Assembly: GCA_033763415.1 (NCBI GenBank)
Contig: JANRKP010000029.1
Span: forward strand, 148,413 to 212,412
Length of the DNA: 64,000 nucleotides
Source of the DNA: Candidatus Melainabacteria bacterium
Lineage (GTDB): Bacteria > Cyanobacteriota > Vampirovibrionia > Vampirovibrionales > JAJTHC01
Direction of reading: 5' to 3'
Shown here: in pieces, positions 6,276 through 56,168 of the stretch
Position numbering within the stretch: position 1 is the first letter of the stretch
Layout of the letters: each line of letters opens with the position of its first letter
The notes under the pieces: model-generated
Told to the model about the DNA's origin: nothing
What the model saw: only the letters and a program-made list of their open reading frames with translations
Databases searched by the model: none
Program-made: the position numbers and the translations under genes

Positions 6276-8054
6276 CTATCCGCCCAGGCTGACACCCATG
6301 ACCCGAATCACTTCATCGAGCGTGCTTTCTCCCAGCAGTACCTTTTCTCGGCCCCGCATGGCCAGTGTCTTCATGCCCGAAGAAATGGCGGCGTCCTCAA
6401 TTTCTAAGTCCGAACTGCTGTTGGTAATAAGCTGCTGAATTTCTCGATCCACCATTAAGATCTCGTACAAACCAATCCGGCCTAAATACCCGGTGTTGTT
6501 GCACATATCGCAGCCTCGGCCTCGGTGTAATGCAAGCTCTTGCTGCTGGCGGTTTTCGTCGTACGGAAACAGAATTTTCTTCTCCGCGGCGGTGGCCTTG
6601 TAAGGGGCTTTGCAGTGGGGGCAAACGCTTCGGATGAGTCGTTGCGCCACAACGCCCTTTAGGGCAGAAGCAATCAGGCTGGTAGAAGCCCCCATTTCGA
6701 TCATTCGGGTAATGGTGGCTGCTGTGCTGTTGCTGTGAATGGTGCTAAACACCAGGTGGCCTGTTAACGCCGCGTGAATGGCGGCTTCCAGGGTTTCATA
6801 GTCTCTAATTTCACCCACCATAATGACGTCTGGATCTTGTCTCAGCAAGGCCCGAAGACTGGTGGCGAATGTAAAATCGGCTTTGGGGTTTACCTGCGAT
6901 TGGTTGAGGCCTTCAATCGTTAATTCCACCGGGTCTTCCACGGTGGAAATGTTGGTCAGATCGTTATTAATTTTGTGGAGAATGGTGTACAGCGTGGTGG
7001 TTTTACCGGAACCCGTGGGACCACACACCAGCATAATGCCATAGGGAGACTTGTAGAGCGTTTCCAGCTTTTGAATGTCGTCGGCGTTAAAGCCCAGTTC
7101 GGGAAAATCGGTAATGTTTTTAGAAGGCCGTAAAATCCGAATAACGATTTTTTCCCGGTTCCCGGCCACGGGTAACGTGTTGACCCGCAGGTTGTATTCG
7201 CTGTTTTTGTACTTAATGCTAATCCGTCCATCTTGCGGACGACGGTGATCGGCAATATCCATTTGCGCCATCACTTTAATACGGGTCACGAAGCTCGATT
7301 CCATGTTTTGAGGAATGTCGAGCAGGTGTTTTAAAATGCCATCCACCCGAAAGCGCACCACGTACTTGTTACGCCGGGGCTCCACGTGAATATCACTGGC
7401 ATTGGCCTCAATACCCTCTTGAATAATGGAGTTAACCAGCTTAACCAACGGGTTGGACTGATCCGAGGCTTCGGCCTCCTGCCGCTGCTTGAGGCGGCTT
7501 TCTTCTTCTGAGGATCCCATGCCGGACTCTTGGGCCGTCGTCATGGATTCCAGCAGGTTGCTGGCCGCGCTGTCGTTGAGGTGCTTTTGGCAGAATTCTA
7601 AAAAGTCAAACTCGGTCGTTACCACCGCCTGGGGGCGCATGCCAGTAATAAAGGTAATTTCGTCAAAGGTGGAACGATCGCTGGGATCCACCATCGCAAT
7701 GACCAGCCTGCCTCCCGCGTTACTGACGGGAATGACCTGCTTTTCGCGCATAAACTCTTCGGGCAGCAGATCGATGAGTCGGGGATCCAGCTTAATTTGG
7801 GCCAAGCCCACGTAATTCAGGTTGTAGAAGAGGCTTTTGGCCTTGGCAAAGTCGTCTCGGGTAAGTTTGGCCCGGCGTACCAGCACCACGCCCACGGGCT
7901 GATTAACCTTTTGTGCCTCTTCCAGGGCAATGCGCAAATCGTCTTCGGAAACCCACTTTTGCTCCAACAGCACATCGGCCAAGGAGCGACCCCCGGCGGC
8001 TTTAGATGGCATGTTAGAGAGATTGGCGGAACTCAAGGCAATGATGATCCCCAA
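6276..8054 (-). CDS. type II secretion / type IV pilus assembly ATPase (GspE/PilB family)
   Basis: N-terminal GspII/MshE_N-like domain, Walker A 'GPTGSGKTTTLY', Asp/His boxes, and a tetracysteine motif (CPHC...CDMC). The true start may be the internal Met at about 8012. Confidence 0.9.
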   Translation of the reverse strand: MGIIIALSSANLSNMPSKAAGGRSLADVLLEQKWVSEDDLRIALEEAQKVNQPVGVVLVRRAKLTRDDFAKAKSLFYNLNYVGLAQIKLDPRLIDLLPEEFMREKQVIPVSNAGGRLVIAMVDPSDRSTFDEITFITGMRPQAVVTTEFDFLEFCQKHLNDSAASNLLESMTTAQESGMGSSEEESRLKQRQEAEASDQSNPLVKLVNSIIQEGIEANASDIHVEPRRNKYVVRFRVDGILKHLLDIPQNMESSFVTRIKVMAQMDIADHRRPQDGRISIKYKNSEYNLRVNTLPVAGNREKIVIRILRPSKNITDFPELGFNADDIQKLETLYKSPYGIMLVCGPTGSGKTTTLYTILHKINNDLTNISTVEDPVELTIEGLNQSQVNPKADFTFATSLRALLRQDPDVIMVGEIRDYETLEAAIHAALTGHLVFSTIHSNSTAATITRMIEMGASTSLIASALKGVVAQRLIRSVCPHCKAPYKATAAEKKILFPYDENRQQQELALHRGRGCDMCNNTGYLGRIGLYEILMVDREIQQLITNSSSDLEIEDAAISSGMKTLAMRGREKVLLGESTLDEVIRVMGVSLGG

Positions 8055-17635: not shown

Positions 17636-18469
17636 CTACAAAACCTTGCGTTGGCGTAATTGCTGAACAATGGCGTCTGCTTGCAGGGCCAATTGCGTAC
17701 AGGGCTCGCCGAGGTCTTTCATATCCAAACGATTGTTCTCCGAGGCAAACACTGTGCCAGGAGCCTGCCGACCAATCTCATTTAAAATGGGGGTTGCTCC
17801 GTCGCGAAAGTGAATCGATTGAATTTTTCCGAGCCCGAATAGCTCGGGCACAAACGCCGAGCGACCATAGGTTACACTGAACGCGGTTTTTTCCTTTGGC
17901 AGCCTGAGTGTAAAGGTATTTTCCACGAGACCATCGGCATGACGGGTGGTTTTCTCTGCAATAACGGTATGGTTGTTGGCAATGAGTTGCTTAGCTAGGG
18001 CAGCCTTTAAATGAAATCCGACCTCATTGGCGCTGAAAGTAGTGGCAGGTTCCAGACGAATATGCGTGGCGGCTAATACGCCTTTAAACGTGTCTAGCAC
18101 TTCCTGGGCCCGGCTTTGTTTTAGCGTCTCGCGCTCTTCTGCACTCAGTAGTTGAGGCGCATTGGTTTCTGCACGTTCCAGCAAACGGTTGCTAAACGCA
18201 ACCACATCTTCGCCTGCAAGCGCGGAGAAATGCTGCGTTCCATTGTGGCGTGTATCAATTTTGCCATTGAGGTAAGTGGGAGCCACCGTAACACTAATTT
18301 TTTGAGGGTCTTTGGCATCGGCAATTTGATTGGCCCGAGCTCTTAGTGTGTCTTCTTGCACGTTAATCTGGGCTTGTTCATCAATCAATTGCCGAGGAGA
18401 TTGAAACTCCCAGTCAATGGTTGCGCCAAACCGCTGAAAAGAAGTACCCATCATGGTGTTGAGCTCCAT
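17636..18469 (-). CDS. hypothetical protein (277 aa), embedded between flhB and the PhzF-family gene
   Basis: ORF with no recognisable motifs. Co-oriented, with 30-120 nt gaps to its neighbours. Confidence 0.45.
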   Translation of the reverse strand: MELNTMMGTSFQRFGATIDWEFQSPRQLIDEQAQINVQEDTLRARANQIADAKDPQKISVTVAPTYLNGKIDTRHNGTQHFSALAGEDVVAFSNRLLERAETNAPQLLSAEERETLKQSRAQEVLDTFKGVLAATHIRLEPATTFSANEVGFHLKAALAKQLIANNHTVIAEKTTRHADGLVENTFTLRLPKEKTAFSVTYGRSAFVPELFGLGKIQSIHFRDGATPILNEIGRQAPGTVFASENNRLDMKDLGEPCTQLALQADAIVQQLRQRKVL

Positions 18470-50912: not shown

Positions 50913-51917
50913 ATGCTCACCCAACACGCCTTTGCTGAACGCGCATATTTTAATACGGCCAGCCCACAATGCCAGGTGTTGGCTCGTGGCCAACACAGCG
51001 CGACGCGCCATTTAGCCATTTATTTTGGAAAAAGTAATCCACAGCCCGGCACGATCGCATCAGACTGTTTTATTGCTTCTGCTGCTGGCCCACGCACGCC
51101 TGCACCGTATAGAACGACCCCCCACGCACTTCGTTTTGCGGCCAATGCCTTTGCCAACCAGGCCAACAATCTGTTTGCGGACTATCCTTTGTTTGCCCAG
51201 CACACCGCCCAACAGGCCGCACAAAAATTACAGCAAGGCTCCCTGCGCTCTGCTCAAGATTTGTACTGGTGGCTGGCACGACAGCGCCGACAGTACCAGG
51301 CCGAAAAAACCGGCACCCCGGCCAGCCAGCTTCCGCACGGAAAACCCCGGCTGACTGACGCCACTACCCCACTGACCCCCACCCCAGAGTATGGCAAGCG
51401 CTTTGAGGCGGAAATTCCGCTGTTTTTAGGCTGGATGGCCAGACACCCCGAGCAAGTGTACACCGATTCGCAAGGGTTTCGCTGCGTAACCCAACCATAC
51501 CGGCTGGTCAGCACAGGCCAGCTCATTCCCCTTACCACGGTTGCCCAACGCCCTGAGGATGGATTTTGCGAGCTGCGGCACAGCCCCTATGAGCCCAGTA
51601 TTGTGCAAGCCCGCCAAGAACGGGAATGGCTGTTTGAACAAACGATGAACCCGCAAGCCAGCATCGGGCAGAGACTGCATCATTTATCCAACCTGGTTTA
51701 CCTGGATTACCACTTAATGCAAACCGAACGGGGCAACGCGGCCATTACGGATATTGAAGCCGCCGCACTGGCGCAAACACTTGGCTTGCAGTGGCGGCCA
51801 GATGGTGATGCCATGGACTTAGTGGCCATGCGAAGCACGCCCAACGAGTTTGAACAAGTGTTTTTAAGCAAATTAGCCCGGCTGCCCCAGGCGCTAATGA
51901 GCCCTGTGGCCGTTTAA
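50913..51917 (+). CDS. hypothetical protein (334 aa)
   Basis: ORF only. Confidence 0.35.
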   Translation: MLTQHAFAERAYFNTASPQCQVLARGQHSATRHLAIYFGKSNPQPGTIASDCFIASAAGPRTPAPYRTTPHALRFAANAFANQANNLFADYPLFAQHTAQQAAQKLQQGSLRSAQDLYWWLARQRRQYQAEKTGTPASQLPHGKPRLTDATTPLTPTPEYGKRFEAEIPLFLGWMARHPEQVYTDSQGFRCVTQPYRLVSTGQLIPLTTVAQRPEDGFCELRHSPYEPSIVQARQEREWLFEQTMNPQASIGQRLHHLSNLVYLDYHLMQTERGNAAITDIEAAALAQTLGLQWRPDGDAMDLVAMRSTPNEFEQVFLSKLARLPQALMSPVAV

Positions 51918-51947: not shown

Positions 51948-53070
51948 CTAGACAACGCTCGCTGGCGAACTATTCTGTAAGCGCAACATGGACTCGATAA
52001 ACGGATCCAGGTCTCCATCGAGCACGGCTTGCACATTGCCATTCTCGTGCAAGGTACGATGATCCTTCACCAGCGTGTAGGGTTGCAGCACGTAGGAGCG
52101 AATTTGGCTGCCAAAATTAATATCCACGGCCTCGCCCTTAATGGCGCTCATTCTGGCCTCCTGCTCAGCCAGTTTTTTGGCTAGCAGTTTGGAACGCAAC
52201 ATATCCATGGCAATCTCTTTGTTCTGGTGCTGGCTGCGCTCGCGCTGGCAGCGCACCACAATGCCGCTTGGCTTATGGACGATACGTACAGCCGTTTCCA
52301 CCTTATTCACGTTTTGGCCCCCGGCCCCACCACTGCGGGCAGCAGAAAATTCAATATCTTCAGGCCGAATTTCAATATCTGCATCCGAAACGCCTTCTAC
52401 CACCGGGCTTACCTCCAGAGAGGCAAAGCTGGTTTGGCGCTTCCCAGAGGCATTAAACGGGGAAATTCGAACCAAACGATGCACCCCCCGCTCCGCCTGA
52501 GCATAGCCGTAGGCAAACGGCCCACTGAGGCGGAAACTACTGCTTTTAATGCCCGCCTCTTCCCCTTCAGACGTATCGAGCATCTCCACGCGAAAGCCTC
52601 GGGTTTCTGCCCAGCGCGTGTACATTCTCAGCAGCATTTGGGCCCAATCCTGGGCGTCGGTTCCACCCGCACCGGCGTTTACCGTCAGCAGCGCGTCGTT
52701 TCCGTCATATTCGCCACACAACAGGCGTTGCAACTCCCACTGCTCCAAGGATTTCTCCAAAGCCGCCAGCTCGCGCGAGGCCTCTTGCAGCGTCTCGCCG
52801 TCTTCCGCCTCTTCGCCCAGTTCAATCAGCACCGCCACATCGCTGGCCTGACGCTGCCATTGAGTAATTTGCTCAAAATCGGCCTTGAGGCGATTGAGAT
52901 GCTGTAAGGTCGCCTGCGCCGCCGTGGGAGCATCCCAAAAGGCAGGATCCAGTGTTTGTTGTTCCAAACGCTCCAACTCGGCACGCGCTTCTGGCGTGTC
53001 AAAGAAACCCCCTGGCCGCTTCAATACGAGGAGCCAGACTGTCCAATTTTCGTTTTAGTTCGGTAAACAT
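51948..53070 (-). CDS. prfB: peptide chain release factor 2, requires programmed +1 ribosomal frameshift
   Basis: The downstream frame (track ORF 51948..53024) carries GGQ in '[17 protein letters not shown]'. The upstream frame starts at ATG 53070 and encodes [23 protein letters not shown], ending at an in-frame TGA within AGGGGG-TTT-CTT-TGA-C (52999..53012 on the minus strand), which is the canonical prfB shift site. Confidence 0.9.
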
Positions 53071-53518
53071 GGCCTGATTATACGGCGGGCAAAATTTTTA
53101 AGAAACCGTTTTTGAGGCGATGAAACGCGTTCCAGAAAAATAGCTCCGCTGCTTAAAGGAAGTTTGTGGACAACGAACAAAAGTACAATACGATTTTAAC
53201 GAGATGAGAGCAGAGACCTGCCTGAGCAACCACACCAGCGGTGTGGCCAAGCCCGTGTGGCCGAGCCCGTGTAGCCGACAAAGGGCAATACCTCATTTCG
53301 TCTCCACACACACACCTCCTGCCAGACGTTGCCAGCGGCTTTTCGGGCAACTTGCCAACCGGCTTGCCAGAGTAGGGTCCTGGTTGAGTTGATAGCAAAC
53401 TTGATAGCAAACACACGCTTTTACACAAGCCAAACGGTACGTCGCCTGTTTATTCTACGCCTTATTCATCGTCTGTTTACCGTAAGCCATTAACACACAC
53501 AGGGAGTGAAGCGGCTTT

Positions 53519-53791
53519 ATGAGCCTTCAGCTAATTCAGCAACTGTTAACCAGTCAGTCCAACCAGGCCATCCAAACCGCGGGCCCACTGCCCAACGTTT
53601 CGCCCGCCAACCTAAACCGAAACATTAGCAGCGGGCCACTGGGTCAAAACAATCCGTTTTTACTGGCCAATAACGCCAAGCACACGGCATCAAAAATCGG
53701 GGTCAACTGCCCGCTGGAGCGGCCCATGTTTCTCGGCTACCGAGACAACCAGGCGCTGTACGGGGGAGCCCGGCTGTTTATTCTCTCATAG
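53519..53791 (+). CDS. hypothetical small protein
   Basis: ORF with an RBS-like 'agggag' upstream. Confidence 0.25.
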   Translation: MSLQLIQQLLTSQSNQAIQTAGPLPNVSPANLNRNISSGPLGQNNPFLLANNAKHTASKIGVNCPLERPMFLGYRDNQALYGGARLFILS

Positions 53792-53805: not shown

Positions 53806-54861
53806 TTACTCCATGACCAGTTCAGACTCTGCAAGAGCTGCCGCTCTTGAAACGAATCGCTCAGGGTCAGGCTCCCCATCGCCCATCAAACGGCTGAGGA
53901 GTAGCTGAATTCTCTCACGCATCAGGTCTCGAACATAACTTGGCGAGAGCACCTCGCAATAGGCGCCATACTTTGCCAAACGGCTCACCAGCGCCTCGCA
54001 GTCATCCGTCTTGGCTCGCACCATCAACACCGGTTGCTCGGAAGAAACCAACAGTTCCTCATTGGGGTAGGGTCGATAGCTTTTGGCCAACCGGCCCGAA
54101 AGCTGAAACAGCACATTGACCGTTCTACCGCGGGCCTGCACTTTGGTTGGCAACTGGCTCACGCGCGCAATGAGCTGAAGGTTAATTTTAACCAACTGGT
54201 GTGTATCACAATTCATGCCAATTAAATAATTATGGACCCCTTCCTGCACAATGCGGTGAGGCTCCACGGTTACGCGCTGAGATGAAGCGGCCTCCTCGGC
54301 ACGGCACTCCAGCACCACAATCAGGGCATCTCGGCACAGTTTTCGAAAGCGGTTCAGGTCCTGGTACATCAACTCGCTGTTTTGAAGCGTTGCCGGAAGC
54401 TGCAAGCTGGAAAATTGAAACTGGTGCTTTTGCCCATCACTGAGGGCCCAATCCACTTTTTCCAACAGTTGATGGCACTGACACAACAGCTCATCATCCG
54501 GCTGGGCAAGCAGGCAACTGTAAAGCTTTCGGGCCACCACAAGCAAGGATTCATCCAAATCCAGCGGCAAAGGGTTTTGGTTTAACGTGTAATTAAACTG
54601 GTTTTTCCTGGAAGCTGGCGGAATATCGCACCCCACACGGCGTAAGGTATTAATATACTTGGTAATCGTTTCACTGTTGTATGTTCGACGAATAAATGGA
54701 TTGTCGAACAACAGCAGGTTCAGCTCCAACAAACCCAGGGAACGATTTTGCACCAGCAGCAGCAAAATATACAACACCCGGTACGCCGATGTGCTGTAAT
54801 TGGACTTATCCGCACCAGTGCCCTCTTGCGAAAGCACGTCTATATCACTCATGGGGGTCAT
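53806..54861 (-). CDS. HTH-WYL-domain transcriptional regulator (PafB/PafC-like)
   Basis: N-terminal wHTH 'SAYRVLYILLLLVQNRSLGLLEL' and a WYL core 'EPHRIVQEGVHNYLIGMNCDTHQLVKINLQLI'. Confidence 0.65.
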   Translation of the reverse strand: MTPMSDIDVLSQEGTGADKSNYSTSAYRVLYILLLLVQNRSLGLLELNLLLFDNPFIRRTYNSETITKYINTLRRVGCDIPPASRKNQFNYTLNQNPLPLDLDESLLVVARKLYSCLLAQPDDELLCQCHQLLEKVDWALSDGQKHQFQFSSLQLPATLQNSELMYQDLNRFRKLCRDALIVVLECRAEEAASSQRVTVEPHRIVQEGVHNYLIGMNCDTHQLVKINLQLIARVSQLPTKVQARGRTVNVLFQLSGRLAKSYRPYPNEELLVSSEQPVLMVRAKTDDCEALVSRLAKYGAYCEVLSPSYVRDLMRERIQLLLSRLMGDGEPDPERFVSRAAALAESELVME

Positions 54862-55849
54862 CGTACAGTTCGTTCATTCCTACCAATGTCTCTAACATAA
54901 CCTGCTTAAACGCAACCGGGCGCAGCACATCAAACGGCAAGCCACGCTCCAGTAAAATTTGTCGGAGCGAAAAAAAGTCTCTTGTCCGCAGTGAAACATC
55001 GCTAGCGCTTTCCGCCAGCTCCTTAGGCGCCAACACCGGCGCCACGGATTCTCCCAGGCCAAACGGAACAAAGTCCTGGGCGTTAAGGCCATAGAAACGA
55101 ATAATGACCAACGGGAGCTGCCCCTGAGAAGCCTGAAGCCCCTGCAACACATCCGGGCGGTCGGTCACCTGCTCAAAGGCAATAATCCGGTCCACGCGCA
55201 GCAGAGAAAGCTCTTCCTGCTCCTCTCGGTGGCCGTGCAAATAAATGGCTCCACGGCGATAGATGAGCCCTTCCGGCAGAAGAAAAAAGGTCTCACAACC
55301 CTTTACCGGCGATTCGTAGACAATGCGTAACAAATTTTGAGAGTCGACCACGGCTTCCAAACGCTGAATAATTTGCCGCTGCGCCTCATAGTCCAGGCTT
55401 CGGCTGTGGCTAAAGAGTCGCTCTAGCTGCTCTTCCTTGTTTGGAATAATGGATTGTTCGAGCAGACGCTTAAACAAACGATCCAGCGTGAGCATTTCCT
55501 GGTAAGTAAAGCTTTTTTCGGCAAAAATTTTCGCCGAAACCAACGTATTAACATCGCTTTGGGTTAGATACAGCCCAAACGGGTGCTGAATCAACTCATG
55601 TCGAAAGCCGTTCGTGGGTGTAGGCCGACTGATTTTACAGCCCAACATTCGCAAGGTGTTCATGTACAGCCACATAGAGTCGGCTGACAGTGTTTTTTTA
55701 ATCAGCGGATCGGCCAAAAAGCGCTGGTTTAAATCCTCTACACTCAGCGGGCCGCAATGCAGCCACTGCAAAATCTTAAAAATACGGTAAGCGGTTGTGT
55801 TCAAAGGAGACGGCTTTTGTTGAAGCGTTTCAGTCGTCACCGGCATCAC
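54845..55849 (-). CDS. HTH-WYL-domain transcriptional regulator (paralog of downstream gene)
   Basis: wHTH 'TAYRIFKILQWLHCGPLSVEDL' and a WYL core 'LIYRRGAIYLHGHREEQEELSLLRVDRI'. It overlaps the downstream paralog by 17 nt. Confidence 0.65.
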   Translation of the reverse strand: MMPVTTETLQQKPSPLNTTAYRIFKILQWLHCGPLSVEDLNQRFLADPLIKKTLSADSMWLYMNTLRMLGCKISRPTPTNGFRHELIQHPFGLYLTQSDVNTLVSAKIFAEKSFTYQEMLTLDRLFKRLLEQSIIPNKEEQLERLFSHSRSLDYEAQRQIIQRLEAVVDSQNLLRIVYESPVKGCETFFLLPEGLIYRRGAIYLHGHREEQEELSLLRVDRIIAFEQVTDRPDVLQGLQASQGQLPLVIIRFYGLNAQDFVPFGLGESVAPVLAPKELAESASDVSLRTRDFFSLRQILLERGLPFDVLRPVAFKQVMLETLVGMNELYDDPHE

Positions 55850-56059
55850 TCCTGAGCCTAGCGTACACTTTTAATTTCAGGCCAACATCTGAACTAAAAA
55901 ACAAAAAGAGTAGCAAAAGTGCCCTGCAAGCGCCCACGTTTGCCTACCCAATGAATATGCACAAAATATAACATTTGCAGGTAACCCTAAGATGATGCTT
56001 GAGGCCAAAGGCTTTGTAAACAAGCATATTTTCGATTTTTTGATTTCCACGGCCAGGTA

Positions 56060-56090
56060 GCAAAAAATATTTCAGAGAAATATTTTTTGC
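56060..56090. repeat. perfect 14-bp inverted repeat with 3-nt spacer (gcaaaaaatatttc-aga-gaaatattttttgc)
   Basis: Arms at 56060..56073 and 56077..56090 are exact reverse complements. Located in the AT-rich intergenic region between pth (3' end) and the WYL regulator pair (5' end). Confidence 0.85.
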
Positions 56091-56168
56091 ACGGCAGCAG
56101 GCAAGGGCGCACCTGCACCCCATTTTTAGACAGCACGCCTTAAATCCTACCCAAGCACTGCACTTGGA

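Follow-up and report, generated by a model that had tools for sequence, protein, structure and literature searches.

Two overlapping genes on the minus strand of the 64-kb stretch of DNA analysed here (the window), which derives from a Vampirovibrionales (Melainabacteria) metagenome-assembled genome (MAG), encode a pair of WYL-domain proteins. We call these genes A and B, and we examined them together with a conserved putative operator that lies upstream of A. The pair comprises:

53806..54861, minus strand: gene B (wylB-like), an open reading frame (ORF) of 351 amino acids (aa)
54845..55849, minus strand: gene A (wylA-like), an ORF of 334 aa from a GTG start (331 aa in the NCBI model)
54845..54861, minus strand: overlap of the A stop and the B start, 17 nucleotides (nt)

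A first-pass annotation of this DNA had described a 17-nt overlap between genes of 351 and 334 aa behind an AT-rich spacer, and these particulars were confirmed in every detail. The spacer upstream of A (55850..56168, 319 bp) has a GC content of 42.9%, compared to 53.9% for the whole window, and ranks in the lowest 0.4% of all 319-nt segments. The overlap, which on the sequence would be 8 nt if B begins at an alternative second ATG, suggests translational coupling; gene calls in relatives place the junction anywhere from a 14-nt overlap to a 57-nt gap. Both proteins are entered at NCBI as 'WYL domain-containing protein [Candidatus Melainabacteria bacterium]' on a 285-kb contig. Rfam models matched one tRNA only in the window and no known RNA element in the A leader.

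An ancient pair of unequal paralogues

Protein A matches the Pfam WYL family (PF13280) at 32.6 bits (cut-off 21.8), and B matches the WCX family (PF25583) at 30.6 bits (cut-off 23.9) with a sub-threshold WYL score of 15.3 bits; precomputed PF25583 matches also exist for several A homologues. BLASTP aligned A and B over the N-terminal winged helix-turn-helix (wHTH) domain only (35% identity over 86 aa). When the two family profiles were compared with hhalign, they aligned over 309 columns (probability 99.9, E 1e-34, 20% identity), and A and B are therefore full-length paralogues. AlphaFold2 models built on the family alignments, with mean predicted local distance difference test (pLDDT) scores of 85.7 for A and 81.5 for B, gave the same architecture for both: a wHTH domain, a helical bundle (of three helices in A), a β-rich WYL domain and an α/β WCX domain. 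The wHTH helices and wing span residues ~15-85 in A and ~24-92 in B, and both wHTH domains are strongly conserved, each within its own family. Despite the sub-threshold Pfam score, the WYL fold of B was matched by Foldseek and by its hhalign alignment to A, and the C-terminus of A aligns to the WCX domain of B (hhalign) and to the C-domain of DriD (Foldseek). Foldseek searches of the PDB returned WYL regulators exclusively at E < 1e-3 for both proteins, with full-length matches that included the wHTH: DriD (9e-11), PafBC (4e-10), then CapW and BrxR for A; PafB (2e-12), then DriD, PafC, CapW and BrxR for B. The PADLOC model PDLC01457 spans residues 20-227 of A and 26-309 of B. Profiles were needed for these relationships to emerge, as a single-sequence search of the PDB found no match for B and only E ~1 for A. 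With Pfam, hhalign, AlphaFold2 and Foldseek in agreement, it is virtually certain that A and B are paralogous WYL regulators, in the tandem, PafBC-like arrangement that had been proposed for them.

The pair was followed through about 25 related loci: 14 from a scan of one genome per species, eight more fetched through homologues, and the three divergent loci L018, L019 and L027. All 14 scanned loci belong to Vampirovibrionales, including V. chlorellavorus NCIMB 11383, and in every one B directly follows A, as it does in the eight further loci. Where contigs reach, the typical order is gcvT, tlyA-like, pth, a PRK-family kinase on the opposite strand, A, B, prfB and aroQ. Both flanks differ at L022 (lipB, ShlB), and L023 and L026 resemble the window in having pth directly upstream of A and no kinase. 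At the divergent pairs L018 and L019 and at the Gastranaerophilales MAG locus L027, a B-like gene again comes after an A-like gene, and the surrounding genes are unrelated. Neither gene was found alone at any of these loci, so that the single-copy orthologues which the first-pass annotation had named as evidence against a pair were never encountered. Since the pair occurs in both Vampirovibrionales and Gastranaerophilales, it is older than the split of at least two Vampirovibrionia orders and, judged by these gene orders, is an ancient pair core to the class Vampirovibrionia (Melainabacteria). That the family is a small, discrete clade was shown by an exhaustive profile search of 1.84 billion sequences, in which 124 representatives reached E ≤ 1e-30 and 381 reached E ≤ 1e-10. 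Two of the loci, L006 (DATNQC010000145.1) and L010 (DATNPJ010000034.1), carry the labels of filamentous cyanobacterial MAGs (Oculatellaceae and Coleofasciculaceae, respectively). Both have the complete Vampirovibrionales synteny and the operator, with a divergence equal to that of true Vampirovibrionales, and are probably mis-binned contigs from a predator or associate.

Although the architecture is that of PafBC, orthology of A/B to PafBC was ruled out. With the A profile, B-family proteins reach 105-130 bits, compared to 16-19 bits for DriD and 12.7 for PafC; with the B profile, PafB reaches 21 bits and PafC 18.9. The matches of the two profiles to PDB entries, at 12-21 bits, have E values of 1e-3 to 0.6. 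A and B are thus far closer to each other than to PafB, PafC or DriD, and their duplication is independent of the PafB/PafC split.

The two putative ligand pockets are unequal. In PafB, R211 and R214 are essential for binding single-stranded DNA (ssDNA), and the equivalent residues of PafC are dispensable (PMC11804915). HMMER aligned the 'LLRVDRI' segment of A to 'FRLSRI' of PafB, placing R215 and R218 of A (331-aa numbering) at these two positions, and both arginines are retained in 12 of 13 A homologues. The corresponding residues of B are N227 and L230; of 20 B homologues, 19 have N, D, Q, E or P at the first position, and the second varies. B is otherwise highly constrained: its wHTH hardly varies, its WCX domain is highly conserved ('GRLAKxYRxYP…RLxKYG..C.VxxP'), and a motif specific to the family, 'RQLPxK', follows the WYL domain. 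From these patterns we propose that A may be the ligand-sensing subunit and B a partner subunit with a degenerate WYL pocket. Strong constraint on a protein whose pocket has been lost, and its constant presence beside an intact paralogue, are what would be expected of an obligate partner subunit.

A conserved putative operator upstream of A and comM

The spacer upstream of A contains the following elements:

56014..56043, minus strand: conserved putative operator, a weak copy (TCAAAAAATCGAAAATATGCTTGTTTACAA; 25.6 bits by position weight matrix (PWM))
56015..56020, minus strand: −35-like hexamer TTTACA from a promoter scan, overlapping the right half-site of the operator
55992..55997, minus strand: −10-like hexamer CATCAT from the promoter scan, 17 nt after TTTACA

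A single conserved block, with the consensus ttgtAAAACCGAAnATTTaTCcgTTTACa, is present upstream of A at every locus, and the rest of the intergenic DNA cannot be aligned. The 21-bp core reads AAATCGA-N7-CTTGTTT in the window (56038..56018), compared to a consensus of AAACCGA-N7-TCGGTTT. The A sites score 30-46 bits at most loci and 14-20 bits at three divergent loci, and the block persists upstream of A despite rearranged flanks (L022, L023, L026 and the window). We saw no second conserved motif upstream of A in the related loci and found no A-type operator upstream of prfB or of the small gene C described below. The last three bases of the core are the first three of TTTACA, which is conserved in 15 of 21 A promoters and has at most one mismatch in 20 of 21. 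The promoter scan, an independent analysis, chose exactly TTTACA (56020-56015), a 17-nt interval and CATCAT (55997-55992). In most A promoters a CAnnAT hexamer (CAACAT, CATCAT, CACTAT or CAGTAT) follows at 17 nt (18 nt in L010 and L013), and the complete arrangement, a 7-N7-7 site overlapping TTTACA with CAnnAT 17-18 nt on, holds for most of the 24 aligned promoters. The site would occupy about −53 to −33 of the predicted promoter. Conservation of the half-sites is unequal (1.69 bits per position for the inner left CCGA vs. 0.82 for the inner right TCGG), which fits two non-identical DNA-binding heads. The motif is likely to be the operator of A/B.

At L023 (9908..9947), the operator sits within a longer 16-nt inverted repeat, GTAAAACGCCCTATAC / GTATAGTGCCGTTTAC, which suggests that outer GTAAA...TTTAC arms may belong to the recognised site. 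A metagenome-wide scan for the exact operator found three loci, two of them upstream of A homologues. The third, L015 (4076..4096 of Ga0070727_10000794), was rejected: it has a perfect operator core within a hairpin (AAAAACCGA-N7-TCGGTTTTT) located after crcB and before glnB-amtB. We judged this match, from an unrelated AT-rich organism, to be due to chance or terminator-like, and it advises caution in regulon searches by exact pattern.

ComM is a branch-migration helicase of natural transformation, and its gene emerged as a candidate second target. When the PWM of the A sites was run over ~390 kb of fetched loci and the window, the only hits above 20 bits besides the A promoters and the chance hit at L015 were three sites, all upstream of comM, whose product is a YifB/ComM Mg-chelatase/MCM-like ATPase (Pfam); they come from the three genomes that had comM within reach:

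L013/L021: site upstream of comM, at 16872 in L021, 25.7 bits
L024: site upstream of comM, at 18175, 20.7 bits
L028: site upstream of comM, at 18267, 30.3 bits

These sites lie 55-105 nt upstream of the comM start and are oriented toward comM, and all three have a CAnnAT hexamer (CAGAAT or CACAAT) 17 nt further on. Genome-specific variants are common to the A site and the comM site, namely AAAAACGAAGATTT.TCCCTT in L024 and AAAACCGAACATTTATCCCTTT in L028. The same architecture together with these variants is good evidence for one factor acting at two or more promoters, and the earlier proposal that the pair controls an unlinked target is borne out to the extent of operator-like sites upstream of comM in three genomes.

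The first-pass annotation had instead pointed to a 14-bp inverted repeat further upstream as a possible operator or pth terminator:

56060..56090, no strand assigned: perfect inverted repeat, arms 56060-56073 and 56077-56090 (14 of 14 matched) with a 3-nt loop
56169..56804, minus strand: pth (peptidyl-tRNA hydrolase), the upstream housekeeping neighbour (Pfam Pept_tRNA_hydro, 8.5e-64)

The repeat is indeed perfect and occurs once in the window, where chance alone would give no such repeat. It is separated from the operator block by 17 bp, and the 8-mer CAAAAAAT is common to it and to the left edge of the motif, observations that favour a role as the operator of A/B. However, it has no counterpart in the related loci, including L023 and L026, where pth is directly upstream of A; the spacing of its half-sites is unlike that of the conserved operator, and the element that is conserved is the one at 56014..56043. 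As RNA it would form a stable hairpin (dG −22.3 kcal/mol, z −4.9) 79 nt past the pth stop, which fits a 3'-end structure, although the stem is AU-rich (almost all A·U), a non-canonical terminator, and the terminator scan did not call it. It is quite improbable that the palindrome is the operator; the shared CAAAAAAT leaves some room for a role as an auxiliary site, but nothing supports one. Its most likely role is that of a lineage-specific 3' hairpin or insulator for pth, which arose when the kinase gene was lost here.

Gene C and the neighbouring genes

A small gene lies tail-to-tail with B:

53519..53791, plus strand: gene C, 90 aa, NCBI hypothetical protein MDX2085887.1, ending 14 nt from the B stop

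A hidden Markov model scan found C at this position in all 17 core Vampirovibrionales loci, and it is called as a small ORF in four more, including L022; neither the divergent pairs (L018, L019) nor Gastranaerophilales (L027) have it. Across relatives the B-C interval ranges from a 34-nt overlap to an 85-nt gap, and with so little space between the genes the 3' ends of their transcripts probably overlap. The C-terminal half of the protein is strongly conserved and rich in invariant residues (NPF..A.N...F...YGVNRPL.KPMFLGYRD....YGG.RLFILY). C has no match in Pfam, NCBIfam or the PDB; its best PDB hit (E 0.56) aligns to the C-terminus of a construct, seemingly an expression tag, and was dismissed as meaningless. 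C may be functionally tied to the A/B pair. Upstream of C in relatives (L013 ~7380-7420, L004, L011) is a block of the form CGGGACGCnnTTGACA-N11-TAGAATA (TTGACA-N11-TAGAAT), often with a short inverted repeat over TAGAAT (CTAGAATAC...TCTAG), which differs from the A-type operator. Its 11-nt spacing is too short for a sigma-70 −35/−10 pair, and the window has a degenerate copy at ~53440-53480.

The neighbours of A/B in the window (pth, prfB, aroQ, tlyA-like and the gcvTHP genes) are all housekeeping genes. There is no pafA or Pup-proteasome locus among them, and no defence gene was found within 10 kb on either side of A/B at any locus examined, the window included, in agreement with the initial view that the pair lies outside both contexts. 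In most relatives a PRK/uridine-kinase-family P-loop kinase gene (~275 aa, Pfam PF00485) lies between pth and A and is divergently transcribed; the set compared with window positions 55850..56168 comprised L001-L014, L021, L024, L025, L028 and L029. This kinase is absent between pth and A in the window, L023 and L026, and no homologue was detected in the window. Downstream, prfB has a programmed +1 frameshift site (window ~53030..53110, minus strand; CTT TGA C after a GGGGG Shine-Dalgarno-like run) that is conserved in all related loci, where its reverse complement reads GTGTCAAAGAAACCCCC. The site is upstream of the main release factor 2 ORF, and the listed prfB ORF (51948..53024) therefore lacks the first ~25 codons. 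Further on, a plus-strand ORF of 334 aa (50913..51917) has a sub-threshold match to the Pfam family AvrB_AvrC (avirulence protein; E 4e-4, 20.1 bits vs. a cut-off of 23.2, residues 233-314). Relatives have nothing comparable at this position, prfB being followed there directly by aroQ.

Interpretation and comparison with known WYL regulators

With moderate confidence, we interpret A/B as a PafBC-like, independently duplicated and probably heterodimeric regulator that would sense ssDNA and control its own genes and comM. A and B would be made in a coupled fashion and form a PafBC-like heterodimer, which seems reasonably probable given the patterns of conservation described above. The signal for the WYL pocket of A would be a nucleic acid, most probably ssDNA by analogy with PafBC, DriD and CapW, and B would supply a second DNA-binding head and a WCX dimer interface; the case for ssDNA as the ligand is finely balanced. 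The two wHTH heads would then recognise the asymmetric 7-N7-7 site, which lies at −35 in both the A-B and the comM promoters, so that one operator-plus-promoter unit may drive the A-B operon (autoregulation) and, in at least three genomes, comM. In Caulobacter, comM is reported to be SOS-regulated (PMC3323433), and its placement under the same unit points to a DNA-damage or recombination regulon. We infer the binding of the operator by A/B, and likewise the heterodimer, the ssDNA ligand and the sign of regulation. Activation would be slightly favoured by analogy: in the placement of the site and in their weak −10, these promoters are similar to those of DriD and PafBC, and both of these nearest structural relatives are activators.

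Several observations weigh against this interpretation. Repression by occlusion, as in CapW and BrxR, would be just as compatible with a site that contains a good −35-like hexamer. A lacks equivalents of PafB R181, R204 and R208, which also matter in PafB, and its ligand may differ. In the window itself the operator copy is weak, with a right half matching at 4 of 7 positions; apart from the A site, the PWM found nothing above 14 bits, exact and near-exact motif searches found nothing, and there is no comM. The regulon would have one member beyond the pair, seen only where comM lies within 10 kb. Finally, the site was assigned from sequence, and it could be the operator of another factor, for example a global or LexA-like regulator, that controls A-B and comM while the targets of A/B lie elsewhere. 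Regulator genes are often under another stress regulator, and a link to comM would suit any DNA-damage regulator. However, the motif has stayed with the A-B promoter when both flanks were rearranged (L022, L023, L026 and the window), and its 7-N7-7 geometry and −35 overlap match DriD, the WYL regulator with a solved DNA complex. To our knowledge, it is also unlike the consensus sites of cyanobacterial LexA, NtcA and CRP. We regard control by such a factor as quite unlikely.

It is somewhat less unlikely, though still not probable, that A and B are two separate, co-transcribed homodimeric regulators with their own operators and ligands, and that the motif belongs to one of them. According to a 2025 paper, heterodimers among WYL proteins have been reported for PafBC and its orthologues only, all other characterised WYL regulators being homodimers (PMC11804915); a pseudo-palindromic operator could be bound by a homodimer, and the strong conservation of each wHTH within its own family suits two independent DNA-binding proteins. 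However, the pair is unsplit across two orders, with genes that overlap or abut, and B is strongly constrained yet lacks the ligand arginines, a better fit to a partner subunit. The unequal operator halves, with no second conserved motif upstream of A, also speak for two different heads on one site. A BrxR/CapW-type repressor of a phage-defence system would be in keeping with the PADLOC 'WYL, CAS-associated signalling' models, which match both proteins (1e-11 to 1e-12), and with the presence of CapW and BrxR among the structural matches. Those models are generic for WYL proteins, however; DriD and PafBC are better structural matches, the additional target is comM, and the pair lies in a vertically conserved synteny of housekeeping genes, pth-(kinase)-A-B-C-prfB-aroQ. 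A defence role is accordingly very remote.

A more ambitious form of the heterodimer interpretation, which we offer only tentatively and consider doubtful, is that A/B is a second independently evolved heterodimeric WYL master regulator of a class-wide DNA-damage or recombination response, with a sensor and a pseudo-sensor, a DriD-like operator, and protein C as a new small effector or modulator (e.g. a division inhibitor or anti-regulator). If the heterodimer interpretation is true, A/B, duplicated separately and with one pocket lost, would be a natural comparison to PafBC, and could show why WYL factors turn asymmetric and how one sensor drives a two-headed DNA binder. We found no literature on WYL proteins in Vampirovibrio or Melainabacteria. 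The predicted operator, the promoter architecture, one target (comM) and the small protein C would together offer a first concrete entry point to stress regulation in Vampirovibrionia, a non-photosynthetic sister class of Cyanobacteria that has been little studied, and are directly testable in Vampirovibrio chlorellavorus.

Among the characterised WYL regulators, CapW and BrxR (PDB 9c5g, 7tb5, 7qfz, 7t8k) share the domain architecture of A/B but match less well in structure, with E values of 2e-6 to 1e-3 against A and 2e-7 to 7e-5 against B. They autoregulate via an inverted repeat that overlaps the promoter, and CapW senses ssDNA (PMC11662680). They are homodimers encoded beside CBASS or BREX operons, whereas A/B has no defence gene nearby. 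DriD of Caulobacter crescentus (PDB 8tp8, 9pfq), which regulates a DNA-damage response independently of SOS and senses ssDNA, is the best structural match of A, although sequence similarity is marginal (E 0.008-0.04). Its site, ATACGAC-N7-GTCGTAT, overlaps the −35 position and keeps a constant distance to the −10 (PMC13004042), and thus has the 7-N7-7 geometry and placement of the A/B site. The half-sites differ (ATACGAC vs. AAACCGA), DriD promoters lack a −35 whereas the A/B promoter has TTTACA, and DriD is a homodimer from a single gene whereas A/B are always two paralogous genes.

PafBC of Mycobacterium and Arthrobacter (PDB 9fnd, 7p5x, 6sj9) differs from A/B in its pafA/Pup-proteasome linkage, its RecA-NDp motif and its lineage, A/B belonging to Vampirovibrionia. 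In the window, the RecA-NDp motif TGTCGGTG-N8-TAnnnT had one match, with one mismatch, compared to 0.6 expected, and this was not upstream of A. A/B in turn has a two-half-site pseudo-palindrome at the −35 position, and its heterodimer is a prediction. Both systems consist of two paralogous wHTH-WYL-WCX subunits encoded by adjacent genes (tandem or fused in the case of PafBC), PafB is the best structural match of B, and both occupy a chromosomal, non-defence context with a likely DNA-damage regulon. In both, the WYL pockets are unequal: the pocket residues are essential in PafB and dispensable in PafC, and the pocket is intact in A and degenerate in B.

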